Shown here: piece after piece, positions 41,627 to 58,891 of the stretch
How positions within the stretch are numbered: position 1 is the first letter of the stretch
How the letters are laid out: each line of letters starts with the position of its first letter
From: Spirochaetota bacterium
GTDB lineage: Bacteria; Spirochaetota; UBA4802; JAFGJZ01
NCBI GenBank assembly: GCA_016934935.1
Contig: JAFGRW010000054.1
Location: 17,900-81,899 of the forward strand
Direction: 5' to 3'
Length of the DNA stretch: 64,000 nt
The notes under the pieces: model-generated
Databases searched by the model: none
What the model saw: only the letters and a program-made list of their open reading frames with translations
What the model was told of the DNA's origin: nothing
Translations under genes and position numbers: made by a program

Positions 41627-42274
41627 ATGAATGTTATACTTCTAGGCGCGCCAGGTGCGGGTAAAGGAACAATTTCCAAACATCTGGTAGATAAGTATTC
41701 CATGGTTCAAATTTCGACAGGAGATATACTTCGAAATGAAGTAAAGAATCAGACTGAACTAGGCATTAAGGCAAAATCATTTATGGATTCAGGCGATCTT
41801 GTTCCTGATGAAGTCATTCTTGGCATTATTGAAAACAGGATAAAAGAGAGTGACTGTAAACGTGGCTTCATCATGGATGGTTTTCCCCGCACCATAGCAC
41901 AGGCTGAAGGTTTTTCTGATATGGTTGGCCGGAATAATTTAGTAATTGATGCAATACTGGAATTGGAAGCAGACGATGATTTATTAATTAAAAGGTTAAC
42001 CAGTAGAAGAACGTGCTCAAATACGAATTGTCAGGCTATCTATAATGTTTTATATCAGCCACCTGCAAAAGAAGGCATTTGTGATAAATGTGGATCTGAA
42101 CTTATACAGAGAAGCGATGAAACTGAAGAGGCGATAACATACAGATTAAAAACTTATTATGAAAAAACACAGCCTTTAATCGATTATTATAATGGGGGAT
42201 CTAACTATCACAAAATAAAAGCCGATCTTCCACTTGATGAAATTAAGGCATCAGTAGATTCAATTATAAAATAA
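41627..42274 (+). CDS. adk: adenylate kinase (zinc-lid type)
   Basis: It has a GAPGAGKGT P-loop and a lid with CSNTNC...CDKCG. Confidence 0.93.
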   Translation: MNVILLGAPGAGKGTISKHLVDKYSMVQISTGDILRNEVKNQTELGIKAKSFMDSGDLVPDEVILGIIENRIKESDCKRGFIMDGFPRTIAQAEGFSDMVGRNNLVIDAILELEADDDLLIKRLTSRRTCSNTNCQAIYNVLYQPPAKEGICDKCGSELIQRSDETEEAITYRLKTYYEKTQPLIDYYNGGSNYHKIKADLPLDEIKASVDSIIK

Positions 42275-42360
42275 ATGATTGATGTAACTAATCGATATTA
42301 TTTTAATTGAGTCTGTTATAAATTTTTGAATCAAATTTAAAATTAAACCAATTAATTGAT

Positions 42361-42415
42361 AAAGCCGAAAAGCCCAGCCTGTAATAAATTATTACAGGCT
42401 GGGCTTTTCGGCTTT
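42361..42415. repeat. perfect 25-bp inverted repeat (bidirectional terminator) overlapping the permease stop
   Basis: AAAGCCGAAAAGCCCAGCCTGTAAT (42361-42385) is followed by AAATT, then the exact reverse complement (42391-42415). The right arm encodes the last 7 codons (KAEKPSL) and stop of the minus-strand permease. Confidence 0.8.
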
Positions 42416-43942
42416 ATTTGATAATTTTATACTTAATGCAAATAAAAATAGAATTAAAATTACGCAAATGGTGTTCAAGGCATAACTCTCGCCGGGATAT
42501 CGGCGTGACGTTATGCTGTAATGAACGGTTGAAATAAGTGGAAAATTTGCCCCGCTTTGGAAAATATAGCTAATTGTGAATTCTCCAAAAATTAATGCGA
42601 AAATCTGAATAAAATTTCTAAGAAGAACCGGGAAGAGAAGAGGTAACTCAATATTTTTAAATGAGCATAAGAAACCGGCGCCATCTACTGAAGCTGCTTC
42701 AAGTATTTTTTTGCTGATTCCCTTGATATGACTGTACATAAAACTGTAGGATAAAGGTATTGCTAATACTGTATAGCCAATTATAAGAATAAAAAATGCA
42801 GGTACAGAATAGTATATATGGAAAGCTAATATAGAAAGTGAAATTATTGATGACGATATGCACAAAAAAGAATTAATAATGATATTGTAAATTCCTGAGC
42901 CGTTTTTTATAATAATATAGGTTGTAATTGTAACAATTATTGATGTAACAATTGCTGTTAAAAATGTATTTCTTAAAGCAATAATTACGGGGAAAACAGC
43001 ATTGAATTCTGTTGAGAAAAGTTTCGCGAAATAGTTTGCTTTTCTTGTTATTGAGTAAAAAAAAGAGTTGGTAACAGAAAAAAATACAATAGAGAATTCA
43101 AGTATGATAAAAAGAGCAGAACCGATAATCGAATATTGATATTTGTTCTTTTTTTTTATACTCTGTTGTTCAAGATTTTCAGATTTACTTCTTAATATTA
43201 TAAAGTTTATAGCCAGAAGAATTACAAACTGAATGATTGCAAACGATAATCCTTGGGAAATATTCAGATTTGTGTTTATGGATTGATAAATTGCAATTTC
43301 AAAATTTGAAAGTCTTATATTGCCTAGTGAAATGAGTACACCGAAACTTGTGAAACAGAATAAAAAAACCAGGAAGAAAGATCTTGATAGCGCTCCGGAA
43401 ATTGAAGGAATAACAATATGAAAAAGTAGTTTAAGATTAGATGTCGTTTCAAGTGATGCGCTTTCAAAGCGACTGATGGGTATTTTTTTTACAGCTTGAG
43501 ATAAATACATTACATAGATCGGAGAATTATAAAAAACGTGAGCAATTATTACTGTAAACAACGAATATTGTAAATTTATGGGTAAATATTTTGTTATAAA
43601 TGAAAAAACCGTAACAGTTGAAATTACTGGGAAAAAAAAAGGAATGAAAAATGTAGATTCAATTAATGTGGATACTGTAGATTTTTTATTGTACAAATAT
43701 ATAACAGGACATATTGATATTAGAAGAGAAAATATAGCCGAGATTAGAGCTTGTATAAAAGTATAATATAAAATATTAAGAGTTCGATAAGTTAAAACCG
43801 CCTTGAATGAATCAAATGAAAAAAATCGAAAAAATAACGGATAGAACAATATAAATACCGGTATTAATAGAATTAAAACCGGTATATTTTTTTTAAGTAA
43901 TTTCAATCTGCGACCATAATCTTTTCCCAATCTATAAGCCAT
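42392..43942 (-). CDS. ABC transporter permease with duplicated transmembrane domain (iron(III)/thiamine FbpB/ThiP-like)
   Basis: It is 516 aa with about 12 TM segments and two ABC permease (EAA-loop-like) repeats. Confidence 0.7.
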   Translation of the reverse strand: MAYRLGKDYGRRLKLLKKNIPVLILLIPVFILFYPLFFRFFSFDSFKAVLTYRTLNILYYTFIQALISAIFSLLISICPVIYLYNKKSTVSTLIESTFFIPFFFPVISTVTVFSFITKYLPINLQYSLFTVIIAHVFYNSPIYVMYLSQAVKKIPISRFESASLETTSNLKLLFHIVIPSISGALSRSFFLVFLFCFTSFGVLISLGNIRLSNFEIAIYQSINTNLNISQGLSFAIIQFVILLAINFIILRSKSENLEQQSIKKKNKYQYSIIGSALFIILEFSIVFFSVTNSFFYSITRKANYFAKLFSTEFNAVFPVIIALRNTFLTAIVTSIIVTITTYIIIKNGSGIYNIIINSFLCISSSIISLSILAFHIYYSVPAFFILIIGYTVLAIPLSYSFMYSHIKGISKKILEAASVDGAGFLCSFKNIELPLLFPVLLRNFIQIFALIFGEFTISYIFQSGANFPLISTVHYSITSRRYPGESYALNTICVILILFLFALSIKLSNKAEKPSL

Positions 43943-44895
43943 TGATCAAGATTATCCTCGATTTCTGTTAAAGGGATAGAGACGGTTTGTTCAGGATGCA
44001 GAGCATGGGAGAAAACTTCAGGAAGTTCTGTATTGGTTACGGGGAACATCCACTGATTTAAGGGGATTTCTTTTTGAAACATATCCGAAAGCATAAAATC
44101 TATAAATTTTCCGGCTAATAATGTTTGTGATGAACCCTTAACTATTGAGGCCCCTTCAATTTGTAAAAAGGCCTTGCCCCCCGGAATCACGAGGTTATAT
44201 GCGGATGATCCATAATTATGTATTGAATAGGCGTTATCAGTGGCGTAACTTATCATCATGGGAGCCTCTCCTGATTCGAATTTGGCAAATGACTCTGACC
44301 AGCCGGTTGATGACGTCAGAACTGAACCTTTAAAACTTGACCAAAAATTTTTCCAGTTATTTCCATGAAGAGCAATAGTCCATAGTAAAAAATCAGTACC
44401 AGTTGAAGATGTTCTTGGGTCTTGAATCAATAAAGATTTTTTATGATTGAATAAATCACTAAAATTTGCCGGTACTTTTTTTATCTTGTCAGTATTGTAT
44501 AAAACGGCAAGTGCACCATAATCATATGGAGTAGTAAAATAATCTTTATCAAAAATAAGTGAAATATCCTTAATATTTTCAAGCTTTGGGCTTTTATATT
44601 TATCAAAAAGATTATCTTTTTTTGATTGTGCAAGCATAGTAGGAGTTATACCTATTGCGATATCGGCTTGGGGATTATCTTTTTCTAATTTAAGACGTGT
44701 TAATATTCCTGACGTAGAATCAAAAAGAACTAGTTTTATTTTACAGTTATGACTTTTTTCGAAATATGGAACAAGGCTCTTTTGTATCCATGAAAAACTA
44801 TCATAGGTATAAATAGTTAATTGATTGTTATCTTCAATTTTAGTACAGCAAAAGAGGATGGATAAAATAGAAATGATAAAAATTTTTTTTGACAT
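43903..44895 (-). CDS. ABC transporter periplasmic substrate-binding protein (Fe3+/thiamine PBP2 family)
   Basis: It has a signal peptide and a PBP2-like sequence. Its stop overlaps the permease start by 40 nt. Confidence 0.65.
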   Translation of the reverse strand: MSKKIFIISILSILFCCTKIEDNNQLTIYTYDSFSWIQKSLVPYFEKSHNCKIKLVLFDSTSGILTRLKLEKDNPQADIAIGITPTMLAQSKKDNLFDKYKSPKLENIKDISLIFDKDYFTTPYDYGALAVLYNTDKIKKVPANFSDLFNHKKSLLIQDPRTSSTGTDFLLWTIALHGNNWKNFWSSFKGSVLTSSTGWSESFAKFESGEAPMMISYATDNAYSIHNYGSSAYNLVIPGGKAFLQIEGASIVKGSSQTLLAGKFIDFMLSDMFQKEIPLNQWMFPVTNTELPEVFSHALHPEQTVSIPLTEIEDNLDQWLIDWEKIMVAD

Positions 44896-45021
44896 AATAC
44901 ATCCTGAAAATAATTAGATATTGGTTTTCGCTATTGGAACTTAGAAAATTACAATGTCCTGGGAATTGATATTGTATAAGTGCCTATTCCAAAATATTTC
45001 CGTTAGTTCCTTGTTAAAAAT

Positions 45022-45630
45022 TCAATTATCAGAGGTTGCTTTAATCAAGTTTAATGTTTCTGTGATACGCTCCGCAAGTGAATCGTATGTTGCATTAGCT
45101 TCGGCATCGTTTTGATAACCACCAGAAACTTTTGCCCAACCTGTTCCTCCGAAATGAGCGGTTGGTGAACTGTCGCCAATTACAATCATACCATGAATAA
45201 GCATAGCTGCATGAACCGACTGGATAGTTATCTCTTGACCTCCATTCCGGCTACCGCCTACTGCAACAGCGCATCCAATTATGTTTTTCAAAGCAAAATT
45301 ATTTCGTCTAAAAACAACAGTTCTGTCCAGAAACGCTTTTGCTTGAGCTGTCATTGATCCCATATAAACAGGAGTTCCGAAAATAATCACATCCGGTATC
45401 TCATTTTTCAAAGATTCAATCAGAAGTGACATGTCATCATCAATATTGCATGAATAGTTAGAATTGCAATAGCCACAGGCGTTACATGGCGATATTTTTT
45501 TCTGCGCAAGGGTAATCAATTCTGTAGTTACTTCTGAATTTAACAATTGAACTTTGTTAAGAATTTTTTTTAGCACAGAATGGGTCATCTGGTCTTTCCT
45601 GGGACTTGCGGATATTGCTGTTACTTTCAT
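45022..45630 (-). CDS. iron-sulfur flavoprotein / NADPH-dependent FMN reductase family (flavodoxin-like)
   Basis: It has ISASPRK, a compact Cys cluster (CNACGYCNSNYSC) and FGTPVYMGS. Confidence 0.7.
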   Translation of the reverse strand: MKVTAISASPRKDQMTHSVLKKILNKVQLLNSEVTTELITLAQKKISPCNACGYCNSNYSCNIDDDMSLLIESLKNEIPDVIIFGTPVYMGSMTAQAKAFLDRTVVFRRNNFALKNIIGCAVAVGGSRNGGQEITIQSVHAAMLIHGMIVIGDSSPTAHFGGTGWAKVSGGYQNDAEANATYDSLAERITETLNLIKATSDN

Positions 45631-45642
45631 ACTGCTTCTCCT

Positions 45643-46047
45643 TTATAATTTATATGTTTGATTCTTATGCTTTTCAATTATTTCTTTTGTAAGAGTCGGA
45701 TATTTTAAAATATAAATGGCAACTGCAATGCCACATATAATAATAATGAATTTGATATAGTTATTGTCAATAAAAAAGAAACAGGAAAAAAACATAACTG
45801 TCCACATAGAGATCACAGATAAAAACTTTCCTTTTAGCGATATTGCTTTGTAGGTCGTAAACGGTTTGATATAGGGAGCTGTAATTCGATTTGTATGCAG
45901 CTTATTATAAAGCTTGGGGGAGCTTTTAAGAAAACAGAAGGAAGACAGAAGTAAAAATGGGGTAGTAGGTAAACCGGGCAGGATAATACCTAATAATCCC
46001 AGTAAAACAGCGAGAGTGCCAATAGTCATTAATAAAAGGTTTCTCAT
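45643..46047 (-). CDS. ybaN: YbaN family inner-membrane protein (DUF454)
   Basis: It has LGIILPGLPTTPFLLLSSFCFLKSSPK. Confidence 0.7.
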   Translation of the reverse strand: MRNLLLMTIGTLAVLLGLLGIILPGLPTTPFLLLSSFCFLKSSPKLYNKLHTNRITAPYIKPFTTYKAISLKGKFLSVISMWTVMFFSCFFFIDNNYIKFIIIICGIAVAIYILKYPTLTKEIIEKHKNQTYKL

Positions 46048-47291
46048 TTATAACTTGATCCATAGAGTGTATTGCGGTCTCTATTGTAATCACAGATTAT
46101 ATCTATAAAAGTGTTTTGAGGAAACTCTTGGTGGAGATGAACTGGAACATAATACTCATTATAACCTCTGGTTAATCCGTTTCGGCTTTTCTCGGTTAGA
46201 ACAGTAGTTTTATGCTTATCAAATAGTTCAAGATAGTCTCTGTTGTGTCTATCAGAAATATTCATAACGATACCGCTTCTCTCTTTTTTTACAGATTCTT
46301 GAACCTGATTTTGAAACGATGCTGCGGCAGTGCCTTGTCTTTTAGAGTAACGAAAAGTATGTATATGTGAAAATTTGGCTTGTTCCAGAAAAATTAAAGT
46401 TTGTTGAAAACAGCTATCTGTTTCACCGGGAAAACCTGTAATTAAATCTGTAGTAAAGTTGAACAATTTATCGACAGAACGAATTTTTTGCAGAATATCA
46501 AGATATTGCTCAGTTGTATATTTGCGATTCATGGATTTAAGTATGGTATCGCAACCGCTTTGAAGGGAAAGATGTAGATGTTTGACAATTTTATTATCAA
46601 AAAGAAGATCTATAAAATTTTGATCAATGGTTTGAGGTGATAGAGAAGACAGGTGTATTCTGAAATTACCAGTTGCATTAAGCAGTTTTGTTAAAAGATC
46701 AGTAAGATTATTGCCATTGTAATTGTAATTACTAATCATAACACCAGTTAAGAGAAATTCATGATAACCTTCATCGCGTAAAAGTTTGAATTCATTAAGA
46801 ATGGAATCAATATCTCGACTAATTGGGTTACCCCTAACGTAGGGGATTATGCAATAGCTGCAATAATTGTTGCAGCCATCTTGAATTTTAAGATTGATTC
46901 TTGTACGTGTCGAATCAATGGCTGGACTGAAAGAAAACCGGGAATTTTTGAAAGTATCTTCGGGAAGTATAAAACTATTATCAATTAAATCAGGTATTAG
47001 GTATTTATAATCATTAGATAAAAAAATTATATTATCTTTGATAGAAAAAGATTCAACAAAGCATCCAGTAACAATGACATGACCGTTAGGGCCGGCATTT
47101 CTCTGGGCGTGATGTATTAGTGTGCGTGTTTTTCGCTCACTAGCGTGTGTAACTACGCAGCTGTTGATTATAAAAACATCCGCTCTATTACTATTTGTTA
47201 ACAGATGGCCGTTCTGTTTTAAAACAGAAATTATAGACTGTATTTCTGACTGATTTAGCCTACAGCCTAGAGAGTTTATGTGAATCTTCAT
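46044..47291 (-). CDS. MiaB/RimO-family radical-SAM methylthiotransferase (MtaB-like)
   Basis: It has an N-terminal methylthiotransferase (MTTase) domain (HINSLGCRLNQ) and a radical SAM CNNYCSYC motif. Its 3' end overlaps the ybaN start by 4 nt. Confidence 0.8.
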   Translation of the reverse strand: MKIHINSLGCRLNQSEIQSIISVLKQNGHLLTNSNRADVFIINSCVVTHASERKTRTLIHHAQRNAGPNGHVIVTGCFVESFSIKDNIIFLSNDYKYLIPDLIDNSFILPEDTFKNSRFSFSPAIDSTRTRINLKIQDGCNNYCSYCIIPYVRGNPISRDIDSILNEFKLLRDEGYHEFLLTGVMISNYNYNGNNLTDLLTKLLNATGNFRIHLSSLSPQTIDQNFIDLLFDNKIVKHLHLSLQSGCDTILKSMNRKYTTEQYLDILQKIRSVDKLFNFTTDLITGFPGETDSCFQQTLIFLEQAKFSHIHTFRYSKRQGTAAASFQNQVQESVKKERSGIVMNISDRHNRDYLELFDKHKTTVLTEKSRNGLTRGYNEYYVPVHLHQEFPQNTFIDIICDYNRDRNTLYGSSYK

Positions 47292-47433
47292 TTAATAATT
47301 TAAAACCTGAATGATCTATTTAATTTATCTGTTTTACAGAAATATTCTGTAGTCTGATTTTGTCAAGATTGATCTCTCAATTGTAGTCAATAAATGGATT
47401 CAGTTAACAGATTTTGTTGACAATCCTGAGTAT

Positions 47434-49041
47434 ATGGCTATCAATAGAATAATGATTTCGATACATTATATACAAATTCTTCTTATTACTCTAACTATCT
47501 TGCTGGTTCTTCATGTAGTCGCCGGGCATCTTCGATGGCAGGTGAGTTCAAAATACCAGACAGGTCTGATTATTGGCAATATAATATGGACAATCGGAGC
47601 AGTTCTTGAAAAATCTGTATCCGTGGAATCAGGTGCGATATTCTGGTCTAGTTTTTCTTTTCTGGGTTTTATCTTCAATCCGGTTATGCTTTTTCTCTTT
47701 ATTGCAGATTACTGTAATACAATAAATTACATTAAAAAAAAAATTAGAAAATATGTTTTTGTAATCCCATCGATTGAAATAATTGCTCTTTTAACAAACA
47801 GATATCATAATTTATTTGTCACAGATTTTGTCTGGCATAAAGGAGATCTTTCTTATCAGTTTGGGCCTTTGTTCTGGCTAATGGTTGCTTACTTATGGTT
47901 TTTGATCGCTGCATGTGTTTTAACTATTTGCTATTCATTATTTAAATCAAGCCAAAATAATATGAAAGAATTATTTGTTCTTATCGCTATTTGCCTGATT
48001 ATACTGCTGTCTAATTTTGCATACATTGTGAGGATAAATGTTTTATCAGATTATGATTTTACGCCCGTAGCTTTTATTTTGAGTTCCGCATTTATATTAA
48101 TCATGTTTAACAAAAATTGTTTTGCTGAGTTACTTCCGTTAGCGCATAATTTTGTTTTCTCGAAAATAAAAGCAGGAATATTGATTCTTGATAATCAAAA
48201 TCGGGTAGTCGAATATAACGATAATGTTAATAGACAACTTGATGATGCAAATTTATGCATTGGTTATAATATATCAGATTTGCCTGAAAGGTATGCTATG
48301 ATCCGTGATATATGTATGCAAAACAGCTTTTACGAAAATGAAATAATGATACGTTCAGATGCTCCAGAGTATTACGAAATGAGTATTGATGAAATTTTTC
48401 ATAATAACAATCTTTCTGGAAAGATTGTTATGCTATATAATATTACTCATCAAAAAAAAGTTGAAAAACAACTTAAGATAGGTAATAATCTGTTAAAGGA
48501 CAGGTTATTTCAAATAGAACAACTACAGCTGAAATTGGGCGAGCAGGCTTTTAAAGATCCTTTGACAGGCCTTTATAACAGAAAATTTTTATATGATGGA
48601 ATAGCTAAGGAAATTTCAAGATCGGAAAGAGAGAAGTGCGGATTCGCCCTTGTTGCTGTTGAGATGGACAATTTCAACAGTATTGATAACCATTACGGCC
48701 AAAGTGCCGGTGACAGAGTAATGGTAGAGATATCAAATGTTATTGCTGATACCATTCGAAAAACAGATTATATTTGCCGTTTTGACAGCGGGACACTGAT
48801 GCTTATTATGACTAAAATTAATGAAAAAAATATTTCTGAAAAAATGAAGCGAATAGTTGATAAAATTACATCGTTGAAATTTAGCACCATTGCTGAAGGT
48901 ATTTCACTTGTTTCACATTTTGGATTTGCTTTATATCCGCAAAATGGAAGAACACACACGGAGCTATTTTCAAAAATTGAAAAAATGCTTCGTGAATCAA
49001 AGGAACAGAGTATAAACAGAAGTATCATTCCTGAGAATTAA
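47434..49041 (+). CDS. membrane sensor with N-terminal 7TM region, PAS-like segment and degenerate GGDEF domain (I-site retained)
   Basis: It has about 7 N-terminal TM helices and DPLTGLYNRKF. The GG(D/E)EF position reads RFDSGTL, while RKTD (RxxD) sits 5 residues upstream. Confidence 0.75.
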   Translation: MAINRIMISIHYIQILLITLTILLVLHVVAGHLRWQVSSKYQTGLIIGNIIWTIGAVLEKSVSVESGAIFWSSFSFLGFIFNPVMLFLFIADYCNTINYIKKKIRKYVFVIPSIEIIALLTNRYHNLFVTDFVWHKGDLSYQFGPLFWLMVAYLWFLIAACVLTICYSLFKSSQNNMKELFVLIAICLIILLSNFAYIVRINVLSDYDFTPVAFILSSAFILIMFNKNCFAELLPLAHNFVFSKIKAGILILDNQNRVVEYNDNVNRQLDDANLCIGYNISDLPERYAMIRDICMQNSFYENEIMIRSDAPEYYEMSIDEIFHNNNLSGKIVMLYNITHQKKVEKQLKIGNNLLKDRLFQIEQLQLKLGEQAFKDPLTGLYNRKFLYDGIAKEISRSEREKCGFALVAVEMDNFNSIDNHYGQSAGDRVMVEISNVIADTIRKTDYICRFDSGTLMLIMTKINEKNISEKMKRIVDKITSLKFSTIAEGISLVSHFGFALYPQNGRTHTELFSKIEKMLRESKEQSINRSIIPEN

Positions 49042-50023
49042 TGATCTGATTTTTCATAATCATAAAGTCGTGACCTTCGAATGAAGGAGCACGCCTGAAA
49101 AAAAAGGCAATTGTCGGGGGTATGCAACCGAAGACTGTATCTGATAAATAGAAATTTCCAGGAGTAACGTAAGAATTGGCCGCGTGAAAAATGAGATTTA
49201 AAGAATTTGAAACAGATTTTCCTGCCATATCTTCGTTTAAATAAGTAACGTTTCCCAGATGAAGTATTATAGTAGGGTTTACAATAACGGGAGACTTTAA
49301 AGTTTCTCCAGAAAATAAAATTTTGTTCAGAAGAAAATTAAAAATTCCCATGAATATATTATGGTTATTGTCTTTATAGGGAAATAGAAAAAGTACTTTA
49401 TTATCATCGGTTATCCATAATTTTCCATCAAGTGCGCCAAAATAAGATTTTAAATAATCACGTACAGTATTAATTATTGATTCAGTAAATTTGTAGCCAA
49501 AGTGATTTTGTAGTTGAGTTACCTCTTCCAGCCGAAAATACAAAATGTAAAAAGAGTATTCTTTGCCTTCCTGAATTGAATTCCATCCCTTATCCGCTTT
49601 TTTAATGTTCATACGTAAGGAGTTGTTCATAATTACTTTATCGGGCAAACTAAAATTTTTATAACTGCGAATTTTTTTTATTCTGCCTGGAGTAATTGGA
49701 TACGCAATTTCTTTCTTTGAGATATAGTCACAGAATCCAGCAAAAAAAAGATCTGATATGGAAGCGATTTCGGATTTGGGATCGATAATTCCAAAATTAA
49801 TCGCAGCTTTATCTACAAAATCAGATATACTTAAATATAATTGATCTGCTTCCAGACCTTGTATATCATAATAAACCAGGTCTCCCGGGTTTATAGAGTC
49901 TATTGATGTATTAAACATATCCCTTTTATAAATGAATAATTCATAGTCTTTTAAAAGAGAATCAAACAGGGAGCCAATTTTTTTGCTGTTTGTGAAAACA
50001 TATATATTCATGAATTTTCCCAC
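49025..50023 (-). CDS. cyclase-homology-domain (class III nucleotidyl cyclase-like) protein, apparently degenerate; N-terminal unknown domain
   Basis: The C-terminal half aligns to CHD blocks. YSFYILYFRLEEVT lacks the first metal Asp. It also has GKLWITDDNKVLFLF and TIILHLGNVTY. It overlaps the downstream gene by 16 nt. Confidence 0.55.
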   Translation of the reverse strand: MGKFMNIYVFTNSKKIGSLFDSLLKDYELFIYKRDMFNTSIDSINPGDLVYYDIQGLEADQLYLSISDFVDKAAINFGIIDPKSEIASISDLFFAGFCDYISKKEIAYPITPGRIKKIRSYKNFSLPDKVIMNNSLRMNIKKADKGWNSIQEGKEYSFYILYFRLEEVTQLQNHFGYKFTESIINTVRDYLKSYFGALDGKLWITDDNKVLFLFPYKDNNHNIFMGIFNFLLNKILFSGETLKSPVIVNPTIILHLGNVTYLNEDMAGKSVSNSLNLIFHAANSYVTPGNFYLSDTVFGCIPPTIAFFFRRAPSFEGHDFMIMKNQIINSQE

Positions 50024-50931
50024 TGTAAGCGATAAATAAAATATGAGCCGGATTTTTTTGAATCATATGGAATAAAGGCAGAAGCAAGAACTCCTTCGAT
50101 TGATGTCATTACAGTATTTGTTGCAACAGCTGAATTAGGTGGAGAAATATTTTCCAACTTTATAGTATCCATAACAGGATCTTTCGTTTTAAGCATATCA
50201 TGATTATCAATATATTCTGTTACACCTGTATTAAGACCGACTCGAATTTGAACCGGATTATCAAGTATGTTCTCAAAAGTATTGTAAGAGAAAAGAGAAT
50301 GCAAAACTTCAATGCTGCTGTAAAGAGCTTTCGAAGAGTGATCTCCAAAGTGAAAAGCTGTTAGAACTCCGTCTCCCTCAATATGCCATATTCTTCCGTT
50401 TCGCGATTCTGTTGCCGATCTCACCAGATTGTGATACTTTTGATAAAAAGATAATACATCTCTATGTGAGTTCTTTTTAAGATGGATTGTTGACTGAACT
50501 ATATCGTACCATACAAAAGTGAATGTATAATCAACTCCCTGTTGCAGCACGCCCCAGTTTTTACTTATTCTGTATTGAGGATCTTCATAAACTTGCCCTG
50601 TAACCGGATCGATGCTAAACCCCATATCAAAAAGAGTTACAACGATATTGCGTAGTTTAGAAATCTTGTATTTACGCCCTTTGTATCCTTTTGACTGAAT
50701 TGAAAAAAAGACATTTATAAAGGGAATAAGCAGATTAAAGCGACTCATATCATCAACTATCTGTCTGGCAATATCAAGCCTTGGAATATCAAGACTGGCA
50801 GGAAGGTTTGAGTACGCTTGAATGTTATAGTCGGGAATAATTTCTCTGGCAAGATGAATCATGGATCTTTGATCAATTGATTCAGCAAGTGATTGGGATA
50901 CGAGTTTGTTAAATGTCTTATCTGTTTTCAT
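50008..50931 (-). CDS. class III adenylate/guanylate(nucleotidyl) cyclase-homology-domain protein with N-terminal unknown domain
   Basis: It has TFTFVWYDIVQST (metal Asp 1), NGRIWHIEGDGVLTAF (metal Asp 2) and QIRVGLNTGVTEY, the hallmark RIGIHTG-like strand. Confidence 0.65.
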   Translation of the reverse strand: MKTDKTFNKLVSQSLAESIDQRSMIHLAREIIPDYNIQAYSNLPASLDIPRLDIARQIVDDMSRFNLLIPFINVFFSIQSKGYKGRKYKISKLRNIVVTLFDMGFSIDPVTGQVYEDPQYRISKNWGVLQQGVDYTFTFVWYDIVQSTIHLKKNSHRDVLSFYQKYHNLVRSATESRNGRIWHIEGDGVLTAFHFGDHSSKALYSSIEVLHSLFSYNTFENILDNPVQIRVGLNTGVTEYIDNHDMLKTKDPVMDTIKLENISPPNSAVATNTVMTSIEGVLASAFIPYDSKKSGSYFIYRLQWENS

Positions 50932-51274
50932 AGTAAATTTAGATATCTGACCTTTTTTGATAAGTTGAAAAAAAACTATATTTATATTACGATTCTGTGT
51001 AAACCGGGATATAAAATCAATGATCTCTATTTGTATATATAAATAGTGATCATTGATTGATATGATTTACAATATACGTTTTCTATAATAGATAAGTGAA
51101 GGTAATAAAACAACAAATAAATCCTGATTTATTATAATTTTATGAGTTTTAAACAATCCGGCTGGGTTTATTGGTGACAATCTTGAACAATACAAGTTAA
51201 TATTTGTATAAAAAACTCTTGATTATCAAATGTGATAATATATAATTTGTGAAAAAGATTAGCGGGATCAAAAT

Positions 51275-53434
51275 ATGAAATGTATAGATGTATTACCAGG
51301 AGTAAAAATAGCGGATAATGGCCGAATATCGATAATGTTCGGATGTCCCCCTGAGATTATTAAAACACTACAGGTGCTCGATATTTCCTTTCCCGATTAT
51401 ATCGTTATTCCTGATACAATATATAAATACGGAGTTGTGCAAAACAGTACTGAATTTCCTCTTTACTATTTTGTTTTTGAACTTCAAAACTGCTTTAAGA
51501 AAAAACTGGGTATTATTGGGGATCTTGAAAGCGTTTCAAATAATATAGAACTTCTTAAATTGACGCTTATGGGACCGAGTTTGGATAATTATAGAGAAAT
51601 AGGTTCTAATCGCTTCTATAACCAACTGTACAAAGAGGCCAGGTATCTTTCATTGAAAAATGAAGACGGTGAAGAGTGTGCGATAAAAGATTTTGTTGAT
51701 ACATATGTTTTTGATGATAATGGAACCATCCAGATTGAAGATATCACCATCAAACATGAAAATGACAATGTGTATTCGATCAATGGGATCGAAATTGATA
51801 TAAATTTTTATGAACCACAGAGGCCGCCATATACTTTAAGAACCAACTATACGCCCAATGTTCCTTTTAAGTTTGGAGTAGATATCCTGGGAGGGGGATC
51901 TGGTTTTACTCCCCGTCAACCCTGTTCAGCTCTTCTTTTAAACTATAATTCGGAATTTATGCTTATAGACTGTGTTCCTTATCTTGATCACTCGTTGAAT
52001 GCCCGCGGTATTTCGAAACAACAGGTAGGTGCGCTTTTTTTGTCTCATATCCATGATGACCATTGCAATATGTATCCGCTTTTAGAGATGAATGATCGTG
52101 TCAAATTTCTTGGAACAAAAGAGATTTACTGGATGGCTTTGCGTAAACTGGCTCTTCAGACCAATGGAAATCCGGAATACTTTGATTCATTTTTTGATTT
52201 TGTCGAGTTAGAGCCATATAAAGAAAATGACTTTTATGGTATGTCCATTATTCCGCACTATACTGTTCATTCAATACCAACAATTGGTGCTACATTTAAA
52301 ATGAAAGATCGTGAAATTATTAAAAGACTTTGTTTCGTAGGGGATAACAAGTCTCTGGAAAATATTGCTCAAATGGTTGATGAAGGTATTGTGTCAGAAA
52401 AAAAATATCAGTATTTAGAGAGAGTCTATTCACGCAGATTCGATATACTTTTTCCTGATGGCGGAATGGGGCTGTTGCATGGTGATCCGGTGGATTCACT
52501 TAATTCAAAGTCTGATTCTGTTGTTTTTATGCATCTTGAAAAGCTCCCGGCAAAATTTGACGCAACTTTTTCTTTAGCGCAGGTTGGAAAGCGTTATAAC
52601 CTGATTGAAAGTAACCAGCATATGTATCATGCTTTTACAGTGCAGACTATCCAGCTGATTCAACAGGCGTTTCCTAATATATCATATAACTGGATAACTG
52701 CGATTATGAATGATGTGCGATTTATTGGTTATAATATTGATGACATCATACTTAAGCAGGGGGAGGAACGTCGGGGGGCAATCTATATTATTCTATCAGG
52801 TAGATGTCGCGTTAAACAGCACGATGGTGAAATTTTAAAAGAAATTGCGTTAAAAGAGGTCGGTGACTTTATAGGTGAAATGGCAATTATTAAAAATAAT
52901 GATCATCGAACAGCGTCGGTTGTGGCCGAAACTCCTGTAATACTATGCCAATTTGATGAAAAGCTGTTTTATCATTTTCTGGAAGAAAATAATCTAGTAG
53001 AATCTACAAAAAATATGTGGATTCAGCGTAGTGAGCTGGATACCTTTTTGCCATTTAGTGATTTTTCTGATTCATTAAACGAAGAGATTTCAAGAGCTTC
53101 GGTAAGAAGAAAAATTGAACCCGGATTTGTAATTATTCGAGAGGGGGATAATTCTACAAGTTTTTACATTGTTGTTAAAGGGCTTTTTTCTGTAGAAATT
53201 GATGGTGAAAAAATAAATGTTTTAAAGAAGGGAGATATATTTGGAGAATTTGGAAGTATTTCGGAATTAATGCGTACAGCCACCGTTACTTCACTTGAAG
53301 AAAGTATTGTGTTGGAAATACCGAAAAACGAGATAAACAGAATAATTGAATCCACTCCAGCTCTAAACTTCTTTATACACCGGCTGCTTAAAAAAAGGGC
53401 GGATTCAATAAACTGGACTAAAAATAAAAAATAG
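51275..53434 (+). CDS. metallo-beta-lactamase-fold hydrolase fused to two cyclic-nucleotide-binding domains (putative cNMP-gated phosphodiesterase/nuclease)
   Basis: It has an HxHxDH motif (LSHIHDDHCNMY). It has two CAP-family cNMP-binding motifs with intact phosphate-binding cassettes (PBC), FIGEMAII...RTASVVA and IFGEFGSISELMRTATVTS. It is 719 aa with an unassigned N-terminal 200 aa. Confidence 0.7.
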   Translation: MKCIDVLPGVKIADNGRISIMFGCPPEIIKTLQVLDISFPDYIVIPDTIYKYGVVQNSTEFPLYYFVFELQNCFKKKLGIIGDLESVSNNIELLKLTLMGPSLDNYREIGSNRFYNQLYKEARYLSLKNEDGEECAIKDFVDTYVFDDNGTIQIEDITIKHENDNVYSINGIEIDINFYEPQRPPYTLRTNYTPNVPFKFGVDILGGGSGFTPRQPCSALLLNYNSEFMLIDCVPYLDHSLNARGISKQQVGALFLSHIHDDHCNMYPLLEMNDRVKFLGTKEIYWMALRKLALQTNGNPEYFDSFFDFVELEPYKENDFYGMSIIPHYTVHSIPTIGATFKMKDREIIKRLCFVGDNKSLENIAQMVDEGIVSEKKYQYLERVYSRRFDILFPDGGMGLLHGDPVDSLNSKSDSVVFMHLEKLPAKFDATFSLAQVGKRYNLIESNQHMYHAFTVQTIQLIQQAFPNISYNWITAIMNDVRFIGYNIDDIILKQGEERRGAIYIILSGRCRVKQHDGEILKEIALKEVGDFIGEMAIIKNNDHRTASVVAETPVILCQFDEKLFYHFLEENNLVESTKNMWIQRSELDTFLPFSDFSDSLNEEISRASVRRKIEPGFVIIREGDNSTSFYIVVKGLFSVEIDGEKINVLKKGDIFGEFGSISELMRTATVTSLEESIVLEIPKNEINRIIESTPALNFFIHRLLKKRADSINWTKNKK

Positions 53435-53436
53435 TA

Positions 53437-53886
53437 TCAATCTTCACAGAAAAATTCTACAATTTCGGCCGCGTTTTGAGCTGACAAAAGCACCCGTCGA
53501 AAGGCATTGCTTTTAGTTGCGCGGGATATCTCCGATAGTGCTTCAATATGAGGACCCGATTGATCAGGTGGAGCCAACAGTAGAAAGAAAAGATGAGATA
53601 AGTTGCCATCATGTGAATCACAGTCTATTCCTTTTGGTGAAACTCCAATTGCCAGTACCAGTTGATTAACCTCTTCTGTTTTCGCATGAGGCAAAGCAAT
53701 GCCGTTTTCGAGTGCAGTGCTCATCTGATTATCGCGGTTGATTACAGCATCAAATACCGATTCTGTGTTCTTTACCTTGCCGGCCTTGTGAAGTATTTCT
53801 ATCAGTTCCCGGAAGACATCATGTTTCGTGTTACTTTCAAGTGGTACTTTTATTACATCTTCGTTTATCATTTCCAATAATGTCAT
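53437..53886 (-). CDS. ptsN: PTS EIIA type-2 (PtsN / EIIA-Ntr-like) regulatory protein
   Basis: It has GIALPHAKTEEV with the conserved His. It is 149 aa. Confidence 0.75.
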   Translation of the reverse strand: MTLLEMINEDVIKVPLESNTKHDVFRELIEILHKAGKVKNTESVFDAVINRDNQMSTALENGIALPHAKTEEVNQLVLAIGVSPKGIDCDSHDGNLSHLFFLLLAPPDQSGPHIEALSEISRATKSNAFRRVLLSAQNAAEIVEFFCED

Positions 53887-53898
53887 GTTCGTTACCCC

Positions 53899-54399
53899 TT
53901 AGTTGAGATTCTCATAGATATCATCGACTCGATCTTCATCTTTTACAATTAAAACTGAACAGGGCACACTTCGCATGGCTCGCTCACTTTCATTGTGAAA
54001 TTCATCTCTACGACTTCTAATCCTGGATAGTTCACCAATTACAAATAGATCAATTTCGTATGATCTGACAAGTTCTTTAATTTTCACATTGACCAATCCG
54101 CTCTCCTTTATGCATTCGGGAGCCAGACCCTTTGAAACAGCTTCAGTTTCAAAGTTTCTTAAATATTTATCTGCATCAGCTTCAAGATCGTTTTTGTATT
54201 CAATTTGTTCAGATTCAATAAAAATACGGCTTTTAACGAGGTCATTAAGAGCATGGGTATTAATGATAAATGTGCCGTATAGTTTTGCGTTCAATTTTCT
54301 GCATAAACAGATGGCATATCGTGCCGCGGTGACCGACTCGATAGAACCGTCCAGGTAAACGAGAACCCTCTCTACAGGATTATCCATATTTATCTCCAT
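53899..54399 (-). CDS. universal stress protein (UspA family)
   Basis: It has a Usp fold pattern (VLVYLDGS...CSVLIVKDED). It lies 4 nt downstream of V-ATPase subunit D. Confidence 0.7.
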   Translation of the reverse strand: MEINMDNPVERVLVYLDGSIESVTAARYAICLCRKLNAKLYGTFIINTHALNDLVKSRIFIESEQIEYKNDLEADADKYLRNFETEAVSKGLAPECIKESGLVNVKIKELVRSYEIDLFVIGELSRIRSRRDEFHNESERAMRSVPCSVLIVKDEDRVDDIYENLN

Positions 54400-54402
54400 T
54401 CA

Positions 54403-55044
54403 TTATTTGTTACTTAAACGGGCTTTAACTCTTTTCATTAGAATATAACGATCTCTCTCGTCTTCTTCAAGTCTGTTTTGTATGTATCTGATGGACTGGG
54501 TCAGATCTGGTATGGCAATTTTTTCTAAAGCATTTACCTTGCGTATGGTTTTACGCACTTCACGAGCCAGCCTCATAATGGATATTTTAAGTTCCGCCAG
54601 TTCACCCATTATGCTCAATATCTGCTTAAAGTCATTAATTGCGTTATCAATCCATGAACTTGTACCCTCAGGAGCGTAGTAGGGGCCATGCTCTTTAAAA
54701 GTTGTCCGTACAACCGGAAGCGATACTCCCATAATACGCCTGGAAGTCAGTGTAATTGATGATTCAATATTAATTGCAGAGGACAGGGCAGCGGCTTTTA
54801 GTTTGCCGTTTTCGATAACAGCAAGTCGTAGTGATTTGTGAGCTTGTTGAAGTGTAAAATCTGATTTTTCTTCAAAATCAACAGCAAGATCTATTAAGTT
54901 AAGAAGTTCCATAATAAGTATATTTCGTTTTTGATCCAGAAGCTCGTATCCCTGCGAAGCAAATTCAAGTTGCTGTTTGAGCCGAATCAGATTTGTTCGT
55001 GTGGGAGCTGGGCGATTATCTGCCATAGTGTTCATCCAGTTCAT
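54403..55044 (-). CDS. V/A-type ATP synthase subunit D
   Basis: It reads [30 protein letters not shown]. An alternative start at 55026 would reduce the overlap with subunit B. Confidence 0.85.
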
Positions 55045-56431
55045 CTTCAGTTATGCGTGTAAGTTCTTCCGGAGGAAGAATACTTAAACATTGCCATGCT
55101 ATATCGAGACTCTCTTCGATGTCGCGATTCTCATCATTGCGCTGGTTTACAAAGCGCCGCTCAAATTCATCACCGAATTCCATATATTGTTTGTCTAAAG
55201 CTGTTAGCTCTTCATCACCAATTACCGATGCTAAATTACGTACATCCTTTACATAACTGTAAGACGCAAAAAGTTGGCTTGCCAGATGAGGGTGATCGAT
55301 TCTTGTCATATCTTCACCGATACCGTCTTTCATAAGTCTCGAAAGGGAGGGTAATCCAGCGACTGGAGGGTAAATACCACGGCTATTCATGTCCCTGTCA
55401 AAAACAATCTGACCCTCTGTTATATAACCAGTTAGGTCAGGTATAGGGTGAGAGATATCATCATTCGGCATAGTAAGTATTGGAAGTTGAGTTATTGAAC
55501 CGGAACACCCTTTTATCATGCCCGATCTCTCATAGAGTTCTGCAAGATCAGAATAGAGATAGCCTGGATATCCTTTTCTGGAAGGTATTTCGCCTCTTAT
55601 TGTCGAAATCTCTCTTAACGATTCACAATAGTTTGACATATCGGTCATTATTACCAGTACATGTTTGCCGCAGTCGTAAGCGAGATGTTCTGCAAGTGTT
55701 AGAGCCGTACGGGGAGTGATAATCCGCTCGATGGATGGATCGTCGGCCAAAGACAGAAAGAGAGCGACTTTATCCAGTACTCCTGAAGACTCAAAAGAGT
55801 CGATAAAATAACGTGCTATATCATGTTTGATTCCCAGTGCGGCGAACACAACCGCAAAATCGGTTTTTTCACCTCGTAGAGTTGCCTGACGGGCAATCTG
55901 TGCCGCAAGCTGATTATGCGGAAGTCCGTTACCTGAAAATATTGGAAGCTTTTGTCCACGTATCAGGGTATTCATTGCATCAATAACAGAAATTCCGGTC
56001 TGAATAAAATCACGCGGATATTCGCGAGCTGTGGGATTAACGGGCAGCCCATTTACATCTTTCTCAATTGCAGATATGGGCGGAGGACCACCGTCAATGG
56101 GATTCCCCAGCCCATTAAAGACGCGTCCAAGCATTGATACGTCAACAGGAATCATTAGAGGTTCACCCTTAAAACGCATCCTTGTGCCGGGTAAGGTTAG
56201 GCCGCTGGTGCCCTCAAAAACCTGGACGGCAACAGCAGTTTTTGATGTATCCAGTACCATTCCTAATCTAACCTGTCTATTTTGATCAATACACTCGACC
56301 AGTTCGCGGTAACCGACTTGATGTGTATTGCGAATAATTATAATCGGGCCATCAATCTGATGAACACCGATATATTCACGTCCTTTAAGAAGATCTTTAT
56401 GAATTTTATCCAGTTTATCTGTTTTTATCAT
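55016..56431 (-). CDS. V/A-type ATP synthase subunit B
   Basis: It is 471 aa. It is the non-catalytic alpha/beta-family subunit with a degenerate P-loop region. Confidence 0.93.
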
Positions 56432-56438
56432 TTTTTAC

Positions 56439-58211
56439 CTACAGTTTTTCTATAGATCTTTCAAGACGTGCTTCAATACGGTCAAGAAGTGAAAGATCGT
56501 CGTTAGGAACAGTTAATTTCATTTTTACAATATCTTGAAGCACTTTTATACGTCTTAGATTAACTAAAGTTGTTCCCTTGCGAATGGAGTTTTCACCAAG
56601 CTCGGCATATTTGAGGATTATATCCATCATACGTAATTGTTTTTCGACAGTCGAATAGCAGTCGTTTTTATCAAAAGCGCTCTGTTGCAGAAATGCGTTT
56701 TTAAAAAGTGTGCATATTTCTATCACAAATCTCTGGCTGTCGGGTAATGCGTCAGGACCAACAAGTTTAACTACCTGCTGTAATTTTATTTCACGTTGTA
56801 AAAGCTCCATGATGCGTGAACGGTTACGAAACCAGTTGTCACCGGCTCTTTCTGCCCACCAGGGCGAGACTTCGTCAAGATATTCGGAGTAGCTTTCCAA
56901 CCAGGATATGGCTGGGTAGTGGCGAGCGTTTGCCAGATGTCTATCCAGTCCCCAGAAGCAACGGACAAATCTTTTTGTGTGCTGAGTTACGGGTTCCGAG
57001 AAATCGCCTCCAGGAGGAGAAACTGCTCCGATAAGAGTTACTGAGCCCTCTTCTTCATTAAGGGTTTTCATAAAACCGGCACGTTCATAGAATTCTGCTA
57101 TTCTGGTAGGTAAATACGCAGGGAAACCCTCTTCGGCCGGCATCTCTTCCATACGACCTGAAAGTTCTCTGAGGGCTTCTGCCCAACGTGAAGTAGAATC
57201 GGCCATTACTGCTACATGGTATCCCTGGTCGCGATAGTATTCCGCAAGTGTTACCCCGGTATAGATACTTGCTTCTCGTGCCGATACAGGCATGTTGGAC
57301 GTGTTGGCGATCAGTAAAGTTCGTTCCATTAAACTGCTTCCTGTACGAGGATCAACAAGTTTAGGAAACTCGTTAAGTACATCGGTCATCTCATTGCCGC
57401 GTTCGCCACAACCAATATAGACTATTATGTCTGCGTCACACCATTTGGCAATAGCGTGCTGAGTCATGGTTTTTCCTGTTCCGAACCCACCTGGAATTGC
57501 AACTGTACCGCCTTTTGCAAGAGGAAATAGTGTGTCAATAACTCTCTGCCCTGTAATAAGGGGAATGCGTAAAGGAATGCGGCTTGCCACAGGCCGTGGT
57601 TTTCTAATCGGCCAGCGATGAATCATGGTGAGGTCTTTAACCGTTGAACCATCATTAATTTTTGCAATAACCGTATCAACAGTATAGCTTCCGGGATTAA
57701 GCACAGAGTTAACTGTACCAGACAGATCTGGTGGACAGAGTATTTTATGTAGTATACGGTCGCTTTCCTGTACTGTTCCGAGTACTGTCCCGGGAGATAT
57801 GAAATCACCGTCATTTATTGCCGGAGTATAATTCCAGAGTTTTTCACGATCTATTGATGGCGACTGAATACCTCTTTTAATATGTGAACCTGATATTTCA
57901 GCCAGTTTTTCCAGTGGGCGCTGTATTCCATCATATATTGTCCCTATAAGACCGGGGCCTAGCTCAACAGAAAGCGGCAGTCCTGAACCGTAAATAATAT
58001 CGCCCGGTGCAACGCCTGTTGTATCCTCATATACTTGAATAATGGCATTGTTACCGGATAGCTTAATAATCTCTCCGATTAATCTTGCTTCAGAAACACG
58101 TACAAGTTCCATCATCATGCCGTCGGTTATTCCATCGGCTTCAATAACCGGGCCGTTAACCCGTTTTACCAGTCCGATGCTTCTCTCTTCCATTTGAACC
58201 TCGTCTTGCAA
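56439..58211 (-). CDS. V/A-type ATP synthase catalytic subunit A
   Basis: It is 590 aa with a GGFGTGKT P-loop and a non-homologous insert typical of A subunits. Confidence 0.95.
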
Positions 58212-58249
58212 GATGCCTTATCGCAACAATAATGCATCACAATTTTTTG

Positions 58250-58891
58250 TCAGTTATCAGAACTATCAATAATTTTGTTAATCGCCTGTCGTATATCTGA
58301 CTGATTTCGAATGATTCTGTCGTTAACAGTATTACTAAACGCTACAGATCCATCTTCGGCGTTTAGTACTACACCCTGACAACTCAGGTGATCAGATTCA
58401 TCCAATTTAATAACTGTTTCATTGCCTCTGATTTCAGAAACCCGTTTATTTACTAAATCCAGGAAGTCCCTATTAATAATTTTTTTTTCGGCGGCAGATG
58501 TTCTAATGATAGCACGAGAAAGATTCAAGCCAATGGCAGCCTCAATAATCCAGTTTAACAGGATATGCCTGTATTCAGGTTTATCTATCTTACTTGCCAT
58601 ATGTGCTCGGGTGTCAGAAATGAGTTTATTGATAAGCGCTTCACGTTCGCGAAGGGCTTTGCGTTTTTTTTCTACAGCTATTTGAGAAATTATAGAATTC
58701 CGTTTTTCATTTTCTCTTCGGGTTGCCTCTACTTCGGCATCACGAAGAATGTTCTCTTTTTGTATTGACCAGCTTTTTTGGTGTTCATCAATTTGAACAT
58801 TCGCGGTTCTGACTATTTCATCAGCTTTTTTTTGAGCTTCTTCAAATATACCGCTTATTACCGCCTGTTGACCCTTCTGTTCCATATTCAC
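58250..58891 (-). CDS. V/A-type ATP synthase subunit E
   Basis: It has a coiled-coil N-terminus plus a globular C-terminus, and operon context. Confidence 0.7.
   Translation of the reverse strand: MNMEQKGQQAVISGIFEEAQKKADEIVRTANVQIDEHQKSWSIQKENILRDAEVEATRRENEKRNSIISQIAVEKKRKALREREALINKLISDTRAHMASKIDKPEYRHILLNWIIEAAIGLNLSRAIIRTSAAEKKIINRDFLDLVNKRVSEIRGNETVIKLDESDHLSCQGVVLNAEDGSVAFSNTVNDRIIRNQSDIRQAINKIIDSSDN

Follow-up and report, generated by a model that had tools for sequence, protein, structure and literature searches.

A candidate heterodimeric class III nucleotidyl cyclase encoded by overlapping genes in Spirochaetota

In class III nucleotidyl cyclases the active site is located at the dimer interface, with the Asp pair supplied by one protomer and the Asn/Arg by the other. 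The bacterial members have been described as homodimers, and asymmetric heterodimers with a single active site have been regarded as having developed in eukaryotes (PMC4821796, PMC9552081). For Rv1625c, co-expression of two complementary inactive point mutants, D300A and R376A, was found to restore activity (PMC4821796). No description of a bacterial heterodimeric class III cyclase was found in the literature, although this search was incomplete and the absence of a report is not proof.

Here we describe two overlapping genes, A and B, in a window of 64,000 nucleotides from a Spirochaetota bacterium (contig JAFGRW010000054.1). Folds, homology, catalytic-residue distribution and conservation of the gene pair were established. 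From these we consider it moderately probable that A and B together form an obligate heterodimeric class III nucleotidyl cyclase of the cyclase homology domain (CHD) type, derived from one ancestral CHD gene by duplication and subfunctionalisation.

Gene structure, conservation and genomic context

Both open reading frames named in the original prediction were confirmed as real and on the minus strand (Table 1), and all of its quoted motifs were located: WYDIVQST, IEGDGV and IRVGLNTG in A, and YFRLEEVT and NIYVFTN...LVYYDIQGLEAD in B. The 16-nt overlap reported between the two genes was wrong. It would place the start of B at a GTG at 50023. The ATG at 50011 (MNIYVF...) was preferred, since all orthologues begin there and the public protein P0012, to which B is identical (100 %), is 328 aa long. 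The overlap is therefore the 4-nt sequence ATGA, through which A and B are predicted to be translationally coupled. A scan of positions 48800-51400 for sigma-70 promoters and terminators gave nothing better than shuffled sequences.

For gene A, 11 full-length homologues with 40–98 % identity and 153 relatives among GTDB species representatives were found, and an exhaustive search gave 217 representatives for the B family at E<=1e-30. All of the A and B homologues were labelled "hypothetical protein". Wherever a locus had enough sequence (84/84), B followed A directly on its 3′ side and on the same strand, and in 72 of 79 pairs the stop of A and the start of B were −4 to +4 nt apart. All but one of the retrieved loci (79/80) were titled Spirochaetota or one of its subgroups. 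Two copies of the family, both of them A+B pairs, were present in each of two metagenome-assembled genomes, JAFGTF01 (L036, L039) and JAGYNX01 (L014, L041). Two candidate departures from the paired arrangement were rejected. A second A gene in CP070841.1 (L049) appeared to have no B, and was found to be followed by an assembly gap (a run of N); a 630 aa protein, P0156, had the length of an A–B fusion, and was found to combine a B-type CHD with an unrelated P-loop-containing N-terminal part.

Neighbourhood comparison of the retrieved loci found no family-wide conserved neighbour other than the A or B partner itself. Within the window’s clade, the pair divergently adjoins a gene, located at 51275..53434 in the window, whose product combines a metallo-beta-lactamase fold with two cNMP-binding domains. 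An HIHDDH motif is present in this protein, its RTA[ST] phosphate-binding cassettes are intact, and one family of cyclic-nucleotide phosphodiesterases is matched weakly. Its cNMP-binding domains resemble those of Pycsar effectors. The adjacency of this gene speaks for the cyclase reading, but such cNMP-related neighbours were kept in the close clade only.

Table 1. Positions in the window of the A and B genes, their domains and the residues discussed in the text
Feature	Position	Strand	Description or basis
Gene A	50008..50931	−	307 aa; putative C1-like subunit: helical N-terminal domain and CHD
Gene B	49025..50011	−	328 aa; putative C2-like subunit: receiver-like domain and degenerate CHD
ATGA overlap	50008..50011	−	TGA stop of A overlapping ATG start of B
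A N-terminal domain	50572..50931	−	aa 1-120; mostly helical (DSSP of model), family-specific
A CHD	50014..50568	−	aa 122-306; profile matches to PDB cyclases
B receiver-like domain	49658..50011	−	aa 1-118
B CHD	49040..49606	−	aa 136-324
A Asp143, first metal-binding Asp, end of beta1	50503..50505	−	Aligned to metal Asp of Ma1120 and 3mr7; codon checked
A Asp187, second metal-binding Asp, EGDG hairpin	50371..50373	−	Aligned to GDG of 3mr7 and Ma1120; codon checked
A Met254...Lys258, canonical transition-state Asn/Arg positions	50158..50172	−	Alignment to VNVAAR of 3mr7
B Arg160, first metal Asp position	49532..49534	−	hhalign to A D143; HMM alignment to metal Asp of Ma1120
B Asn204, second metal Asp position	49400..49402	−	hhalign with A; HMM alignment
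B Asn272...His276, helix alpha4	49184..49198	−	HMM alignment to VNVAAR of 3mr7: N on N, H on R

Domain architecture and homology

The C-terminal domains of both proteins were confirmed as CHD folds by Foldseek and profile comparisons, with the beta-alpha-alpha-beta-beta-alpha-beta arrangement of the cyclase fold. As single sequences neither A nor B matched any PDB entry, and family profiles were needed; the A CHD profile then matched 3mr7 (E 4e-9), Ma1120 (E 3e-6), Rv1900c (E 2e-4) and PycC 7r65 (E 8e-4). The AF2 model of A had a pLDDT of 84.4, and its best 50 Foldseek PDB matches were all class III cyclases. The score of A against Pfam Guanylate_cyc (PF00211) was 19.9 bits for the full length and 21.3 bits for the domain, below the gathering score of 21.9, and only 10 of 85 A-family CHDs reached this model at E<=0.01. 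For B, which was modelled at a pLDDT of 84.8, no Pfam match was found, Guanylate_cyc was absent from all 18 B sequences searched, and HMM alignment to CHDs by sequence alone was not significant (E about 0.1). NCBIfam likewise gave no match for A or B.

The two proteins were related to each other by BLASTP (E 3e-6), and hhalign of the A-family and B-family profiles gave 97.9 % probability and an E-value of 4.7e-13 over 171 columns, with a common lead-in to both CHDs of the form W-x6-G-x-(E)Y-x-F. On these scores, the resemblance of A and B to each other, and of A to class III cyclases, is far beyond chance.

The N-terminal domains differ from one another. For A, no Pfam match was found for this domain, and a 78-sequence profile retrieved nothing from the PDB (best E 1.3). 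The receiver-like appearance first noticed at the N-terminus of B was borne out by structure comparison of the model, which has a CheY-like (beta/alpha)5 fold; no Pfam Response_reg match was found in B. The beta3 Asp is conserved (D49, 81/84). At the beta5 Lys position the window protein has K99, and 56/84 have K or R. At beta1 the window protein has N8 and 40/84 have D, as a single acid only, and the Thr/Ser position is occupied by Asp (D77, 80/84). B thus has less than the full phosphorylation pocket of a receiver, and the domain is probably a pseudo-receiver. Its phosphorylation is doubtful given the absence of a beta1 acid and Thr/Ser and the partial conservation of the Lys.

A shared fold would also be compatible with a different reaction, in which the pair acts as a Pycsar-like pyrimidine cyclase or as a nucleotidyltransferase (GGDEF-like or oligonucleotide-forming) and might belong to a defence system. 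The best library matches of A were weak ones to PycC models, against which the N-terminal half of its CHD scored best (E 2.6e-6), the PycC structures 7r65, 8jsz and 8jsf were among the fold matches, and the Pycsar-like cNMP-binding domains of the divergent neighbour point in the same direction. Faint GGDEF matches occurred in 3 of 18 B proteins (E 0.026); a GG[DE]EF hairpin motif or a preference for a GGDEF-type fold was not found in the pair. Identity as a Pycsar or defence system was rejected, as the surroundings of the pair include no conserved effector and the distribution of the retrieved loci, 79/80 of them under Spirochaetota titles, is not patchy. Overall, such an alternative chemistry is considered highly improbable.

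Catalytic residues and the proposed enzyme

Catalytic positions were mapped by hhalign of A against B together with direct HMM alignments to 3mr7 and Ma1120, and residues were counted across 87 A and 84 B sequences, with per-position totals varying slightly. As originally predicted, A keeps both canonical metal-binding Asp residues, and these are conserved across the family (Asp143 in 85/86, Asp187 in 86/87); the EGDG hairpin is invariant and R230 is kept. At the canonical transition-state positions of A there is no conservation, the Asn position (M254 in the window) being K50/N9/R8 and others and the Arg position (K258) E35/D11/R9 and others. An orthologue of A at one locus, P0010 (L003), is without both Asp residues, and its partner B keeps the Asn and His.

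The first metal Asp was correctly predicted to be missing from B, where the alignments place R160 and no Asp (family E64, R9, D3, Q3). The loss is not confined to this residue, and the second Asp is also gone (N204; family F30, Y15, T7, L6 and others, with D in 3/81 and an aromatic residue in 45/81). B carries the opposite half of the site. Asn272 and His276, which both lie inside helix 269-280 of the AF2 model and map identically when routed via A, are N in 82/82 and H in 80/82 of the family. Of the transition-state pair, whose loss from both proteins had been raised as a sign of inactivity, the Asn is therefore retained in B and the Arg is replaced by His.

The census and three independent alignments gave a complementary split of catalytic residues over two diverged CHDs. 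By residue content A is C1-like, with two Asp and no Asn/Arg, and B is C2-like, with Asn/His and no Asp pair, so neither an A nor a B homodimer should hold a complete site. The testable elements of the original interpretation all held up, with one refinement: the two are not an active enzyme with a pseudo-enzyme, A being itself incomplete, but complementary half-enzymes.

The same counts bear on whether A alone could be the enzyme, as a homodimer with non-canonical transition-state residues, with B as a co-expressed regulatory pseudo-enzyme or adaptor that acts via its receiver-like domain and lends no catalytic residues. This arrangement would fit the presence in A of both metal Asp, of R230 and of an invariant EGDG hairpin, and the fact that A scores as a cyclase by sequence and B does not; a phosphate contact is conceivable for the Lys that 50/86 A proteins have at the Asn position. 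However, the variability of the Asn and Arg positions of A (K/N/R/Q/A/E/M... and E/D/R/M/Q...) argues against a catalytic role there, and N272 and H276 are invariant or nearly so among B proteins whose CHDs are only 22–30 % identical to that of the window B, which would hardly be expected if B were a pseudo-enzyme with a regulatory role alone. A as sole enzyme is thus judged distinctly unlikely.

The base-recognition positions were also non-canonical. The purine-specifying Lys position is H183 in A (family N/S/H...) and I200 in B (family M/I), and the purine-specifying Asp position in B is K265 (family T/N/E...), where the alignment is less certain. Neither the Lys/Asp pair for ATP nor a Glu/Cys-type pair for GTP was found, these positions being hydrophobic or variable in A and B. 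With His in place of Arg and these non-canonical base positions, activity could be weak, altered or absent. An A/B complex that is non-catalytic, namely a nucleotide-binding sensor or scaffold of cyclase-like domains, would resemble the Pseudomonas aeruginosa ATP-binding protein related to class III cyclases or the cyclase-like fold proteins of Acinetobacter. Against this, both metal Asp of A are kept in about 99 % and the Asn of B in 100 %, a signature of selection on chemistry rather than on binding only, and we regard a non-catalytic role as unlikely.

From the residue distribution, and by analogy with known cyclases, a scheme for heterodimerisation, catalysis, product and regulation of the favoured A/B enzyme may be proposed. 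One bicistronic message with the ATGA overlap would yield both proteins, favouring their co-production, and the two CHDs would pair head to tail as in all class III cyclases. The heterodimer would most likely have a composite active site and a second, degenerate one, as in mammalian adenylyl cyclase C1/C2. The composite site would be formed by D143 and D187 of A, binding metal, and by N272 (ribose/transition state) and H276 (for Arg) of B. The second, pseudo-symmetric site, made of R160 and N204 of B and M254 and K258 of A, would be catalytically dead and may be a regulatory pocket. Regulatory inputs would come from the receiver-like domain of B and the helical N-terminal domain of A, and the product would be a cyclic nucleotide, with the base left undefined by the non-canonical recognition positions.

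Outside the window’s clade, B has mostly Glu at the first Asp position (64/83), with an Asp two residues on (74/83), so the degenerate half-site cannot be called "dead" throughout the family and might itself be functional. When residue 160 of B is Glu or Asp, residue 254 of A is Lys or Arg in 49/67 pairs, compared with a basic residue in 1/9 pairs when residue 160 of B is Arg. This charge covariation in the degenerate site is suggestive (Fisher p = 6e-4, with phylogeny not corrected for). Like the strict adjacency of the two genes and their narrow spacing, it lends indirect support to an association of A and B.

Comparison with known cyclase systems

On its broadest reading, the pair would be a natural, obligate heterodimeric class III cyclase encoded by two genes, the first of its kind in bacteria, widespread across Spirochaetota orders and found there only so far, and an independent invention of the C1/C2 arrangement. 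It would combine His for Arg and a non-canonical base pocket with a product other than cAMP/cGMP or a novel selectivity, under control of a pseudo-receiver and a degenerate allosteric site. Taken together, this is tentative and unlikely. If the favoured A/B heterodimer is correct, its conserved, operon-encoded occurrence in many Spirochaetota lineages would show that the division of labour seen in C1/C2 evolved in bacteria too, a simple two-protein system would be available to study why asymmetric cyclases keep a degenerate site, and a function would be gained for several hundred "hypothetical protein" clusters (the 217 B representatives and 153 A relatives). As A and B escape Pfam and NCBIfam, current surveys of spirochaete second-messenger enzymes miss them.

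The closest relatives by sequence and fold are the homodimeric bacterial class III cyclases (Ma1120, Rv1900c, Rv1625c, CyaC, Cya2, CyaB and Silicibacter 3mr7). In these enzymes a single chain has all catalytic residues and the two sites formed are equivalent, whereas A and B each carry a half-set. Base-recognition residues are non-canonical in Pycsar PycC as in the pair, but Pycsar joins PycC to a gene for a cNMP-activated effector, which has no conserved counterpart here, and we know of no two-gene split PycC. The REC-GGDEF proteins PleD, WspR and DgcR resemble B over its whole length (Foldseek E about 2e-8), both having a receiver fold at the N-terminus and a palm-type cyclase domain after it. 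The catalytic domain of B differs in being a CHD rather than GGDEF, and its receiver is without the beta1 acid and Thr/Ser and has a partly conserved Lys.

Mammalian membrane adenylyl cyclase C1/C2 (PDB 1cs4, 1ab8) is one fused chain, in contrast to the two polypeptides from overlapping bacterial genes described here. The pair has His for Arg and is without the adenine-specifying Lys and Asp, and its receiver-like and helical domains stand where the mammalian enzyme has 6TM bundles and G-protein sites. Soluble guanylate cyclase alpha/beta (3uvj, 6jt2, 6pas) was among the fold matches of both A and B, at 11–16 % sequence identity. It differs from the pair in being eukaryotic, with H-NOX/PAS/coiled-coil sensors, Glu/Cys guanine specificity and Asn/Arg. 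It is a two-polypeptide CHD heterodimer with one catalytic site and one pseudo-site, in which each subunit has its own N-terminal sensor domains, and in this it resembles the proposed A/B enzyme.

Organization and conservation of the gene pair

Genes A and B, encoding the C1-like and C2-like cyclase homology domain (CHD) subunits respectively, are arranged head-to-tail on one strand. The ORF listing placed the start of B at a GTG at 50023, corresponding to the 16 nt overlap of the original prediction. This start was ruled out, as all B orthologues start with M-x-I and the database protein P0012 ('MAG: Spirochaetes bacterium', hypothetical protein), 100 % identical to B, is 328 aa long. In the junction DNA, the A stop (...tca-TGA) is overlapped by ATG-AAT-ATA, and B was therefore assigned to this ATG, reducing the overlap to the 4 nt ATGA. 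The motifs quoted in the original prediction were all found in the two ORFs.

Coordinates of the gene pair and of other features of the window
Feature	Position	Strand	Remarks
Gene A	50008..50931	minus	ORF, 307 aa
Gene B	49025..50011	minus	ORF, 328 aa; start corrected by orthologues, P0012 and DNA
B positions 160/162	49526..49534		see text
MBL-2xCNB gene	51275..53434	+	719 aa; divergent, upstream of A
7TM (HisKA_7TM)-GGDEF diguanylate cyclase gene	47434..49041	+	convergent with B; the two 3' ends share 17 nt (49025-49041)
MiaB-like radical SAM gene	46044..47291	-	
PTS EIIA-2 domain protein and universal stress protein	53437..54399	-	just past MBL-2xCNB gene
tRNA-Thr (GGT)	4511..4584	+	sole Rfam/ARAGORN match in the 64 kb window
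Low G+C	42001..52000		0.30-0.34 around 42-52 kb compared with about 0.40 elsewhere
Negative GC skew	54001..60000		positive across the first 54 kb

Searches recovered 11 close homologues of A and, after profile iteration, 18 of B. The B profile, run as an exhaustive HMM search, returned 217 cluster representatives at E<=1e-30, nearly all 315-340 aa, and a scan of GTDB species representatives returned 153 relatives of A; the source name was 'hypothetical protein' in every case seen. Among the retrieved A loci, 79/80 were titled Spirochaetota or its subgroups (Leptospirales, Spirochaetales, Treponemataceae, Alkalispirochaeta) and one uncultured bacterium. In 84/84 loci with enough downstream sequence, the A-type ORF was followed directly 3' by a B-type ORF in the same orientation, with -4 to +4 nt between A stop and B start in 72 of 79 pairs; the three seeming cases of A without B were contig ends or an assembly gap. 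In the two-copy MAG assemblies JAFGTF01 (L036, L039) and JAGYNX01 (L014, L041) each copy was an A+B pair, and the pair therefore appears to duplicate as a unit. CP070841.1 also has two family copies (L030, L049), with the second A (L049) followed by an assembly gap.

No further neighbour was kept family-wide in the comparison of retrieved loci. In the divergent gene product, an unassigned stretch of about 200 aa at the N-terminus is accompanied by a metallo-beta-lactamase fold (HIHDDH motif) and two cNMP-binding domains (MBL-2xCNB) whose RTAS/RTAT phosphate-binding cassettes are intact. This protein weakly matched a cyclic-nucleotide-degrading phosphodiesterase family and the anti-Pycsar protein Apyc1, and could be a cNMP-regulated cNMP phosphodiesterase. 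Elsewhere this gene is a neighbour of the pair in L004 and L012 alone, and the 7TM-GGDEF gene recurs in L003, L004 and L012, within the closest clade only. These surroundings fit a cyclic-nucleotide signalling neighbourhood restricted to the window's clade. No link was seen between the pair and the PTS EIIA-2, universal stress protein or MiaB-like genes.

Folds and domain composition

A matched Pfam Guanylate_cyc at 19.9 bits, below the gathering score of 21.9, and B had no Pfam match; neither protein matched NCBIfam, or the PDB in single-sequence searches. Family profiles resolved the assignment. A profile of the A C-terminal domain (85 sequences) matched the solved class III cyclases 3mr7 (E 4e-9), Ma1120 (E 3e-6) and Rv1900c (E 2e-4), and also PycC (the Pycsar pyrimidine cyclase), CyaB and Cya2. 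Using the AF2 model of A (pLDDT 84.4), the top 50 Foldseek matches were class III cyclases only. Matches of the B profile to the PDB were all cyclases, at a non-significant E of about 0.1. The two families are homologous to each other (hhalign 97.9 %, E 4.7e-13, 171 columns; window proteins by BLASTP, E 3e-6).

The N-terminal domains of A and B are unlike each other. The first 120 residues of A are helical in the AF2 model and matched nothing known in a profile search. In the receiver-like domain of B, the beta3 Asp is kept in 81/84 sequences, the beta1 acidic pair is lacking (N8 in the window), Asp occupies the Thr/Ser position and the beta5 position is Lys/Arg in only 56/84. The domain is best regarded as a pseudo-receiver. 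A 630 aa metagenomic relative, P0156, has a B-type CHD lacking this domain and joined to an unrelated N-terminal part with a P-loop (GPHGSGKT), representing a distinct architecture or else a chimera produced by assembly.

Catalytic residues divided between A and B

Catalytic positions were mapped by three independent alignments (A to 3mr7/Ma1120, B to 3mr7/Ma1120, and A to B), followed by a census of 87 A and 84 B sequences.

Catalytic positions in the window proteins and their families (alignments and census)
Position	A	B
First metal Asp	D143; D 85/86	R160; E 64, R 9, D 3
Second metal Asp	D187; D 86/87	N204; F 30, Y 15, D only 3
Transition-state Asn	M254; K 50, N 9, R 8, others	N272; N 82/82
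Transition-state Arg	K258; E 35, D 11, R 9, others	H276; H 80/82

The first metal Asp is thus absent from B, as originally predicted. In the B model, N272 and H276 are one turn apart on helix 269-280, as are Asn and Arg in canonical CHDs. In class III cyclases the active site is built where two protomers meet, one contributing the Asp pair and its partner the Asn/Arg. This sharing is illustrated by complementary Rv1625c mutants (PMC4821796). Given such a site and the split residues, an A/A or B/B homodimer should lack a complete active site; pairing A with B would give a single one. The putative two-CHD heterodimer of the original prediction was supported and sharpened, its 'active plus pseudo' assignment being replaced by complementary half-enzymes. 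That A is an enzyme by itself is quite unlikely.

The class III fold and the split catalytic set are present; a Pfam score at threshold, the canonical Arg and purine-specifying residues are absent. The base-specifying positions are non-canonical: the Lys position is H183 in A (family N/S/H) and I200 in B (family M/I), and the Asp position is K265 in B (family T/N/E). A non-catalytic nucleotide sensor is unlikely, given the near-invariant Asp pair of A and the invariant Asn of B. Different chemistry or a defence role is highly improbable. A and B are more probably than not a heterodimeric single-site cyclase, with dimerisation, activity, product and regulation all inferred.

Positions 160/162 of B read R-L-E in the window's clade and E-L-D in most B outside it, so that the 'degenerate' half-site is itself conserved across most of the family. 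This Glu at the first Asp position, with an Asp two residues on, suggests that the 'dead' half-site may have a conserved function of its own. The charge of B160 covaries with that of A254, its predicted counterpart on the other side of the interface: where B160 is acidic, Lys/Arg occupies A254 in 49/67 pairs, compared with 1/9 pairs where B160 is Arg (Fisher p = 6e-4, with no phylogenetic correction). This provides weak independent support for an A-B contact. In the A orthologue P0010 (L003:8001-8921), both metal-binding Asp are replaced, by Ser and Ala, and the adjacent B retains the invariant Asn and His; P0010 may be a naturally inactivated copy.

Comparison with known cyclases

Bacterial class III cyclases are stated to homodimerise, giving two productive centres (PMC4821796, PMC9552081), and R. 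centenum GcyB/GcyC have been described as non-catalytic cyclase subunits (PMC4681086). The heterodimeric CHD enzymes found in literature searches were only eukaryotic, namely tmAC, sGC and the chytrid rhodopsin-cyclases. The split-residue logic proposed for A/B is the same as that of mammalian adenylyl cyclase C1/C2 and of soluble guanylate cyclase alpha/beta, and the pair would, on balance, be expected to work like these heterodimeric cyclases.
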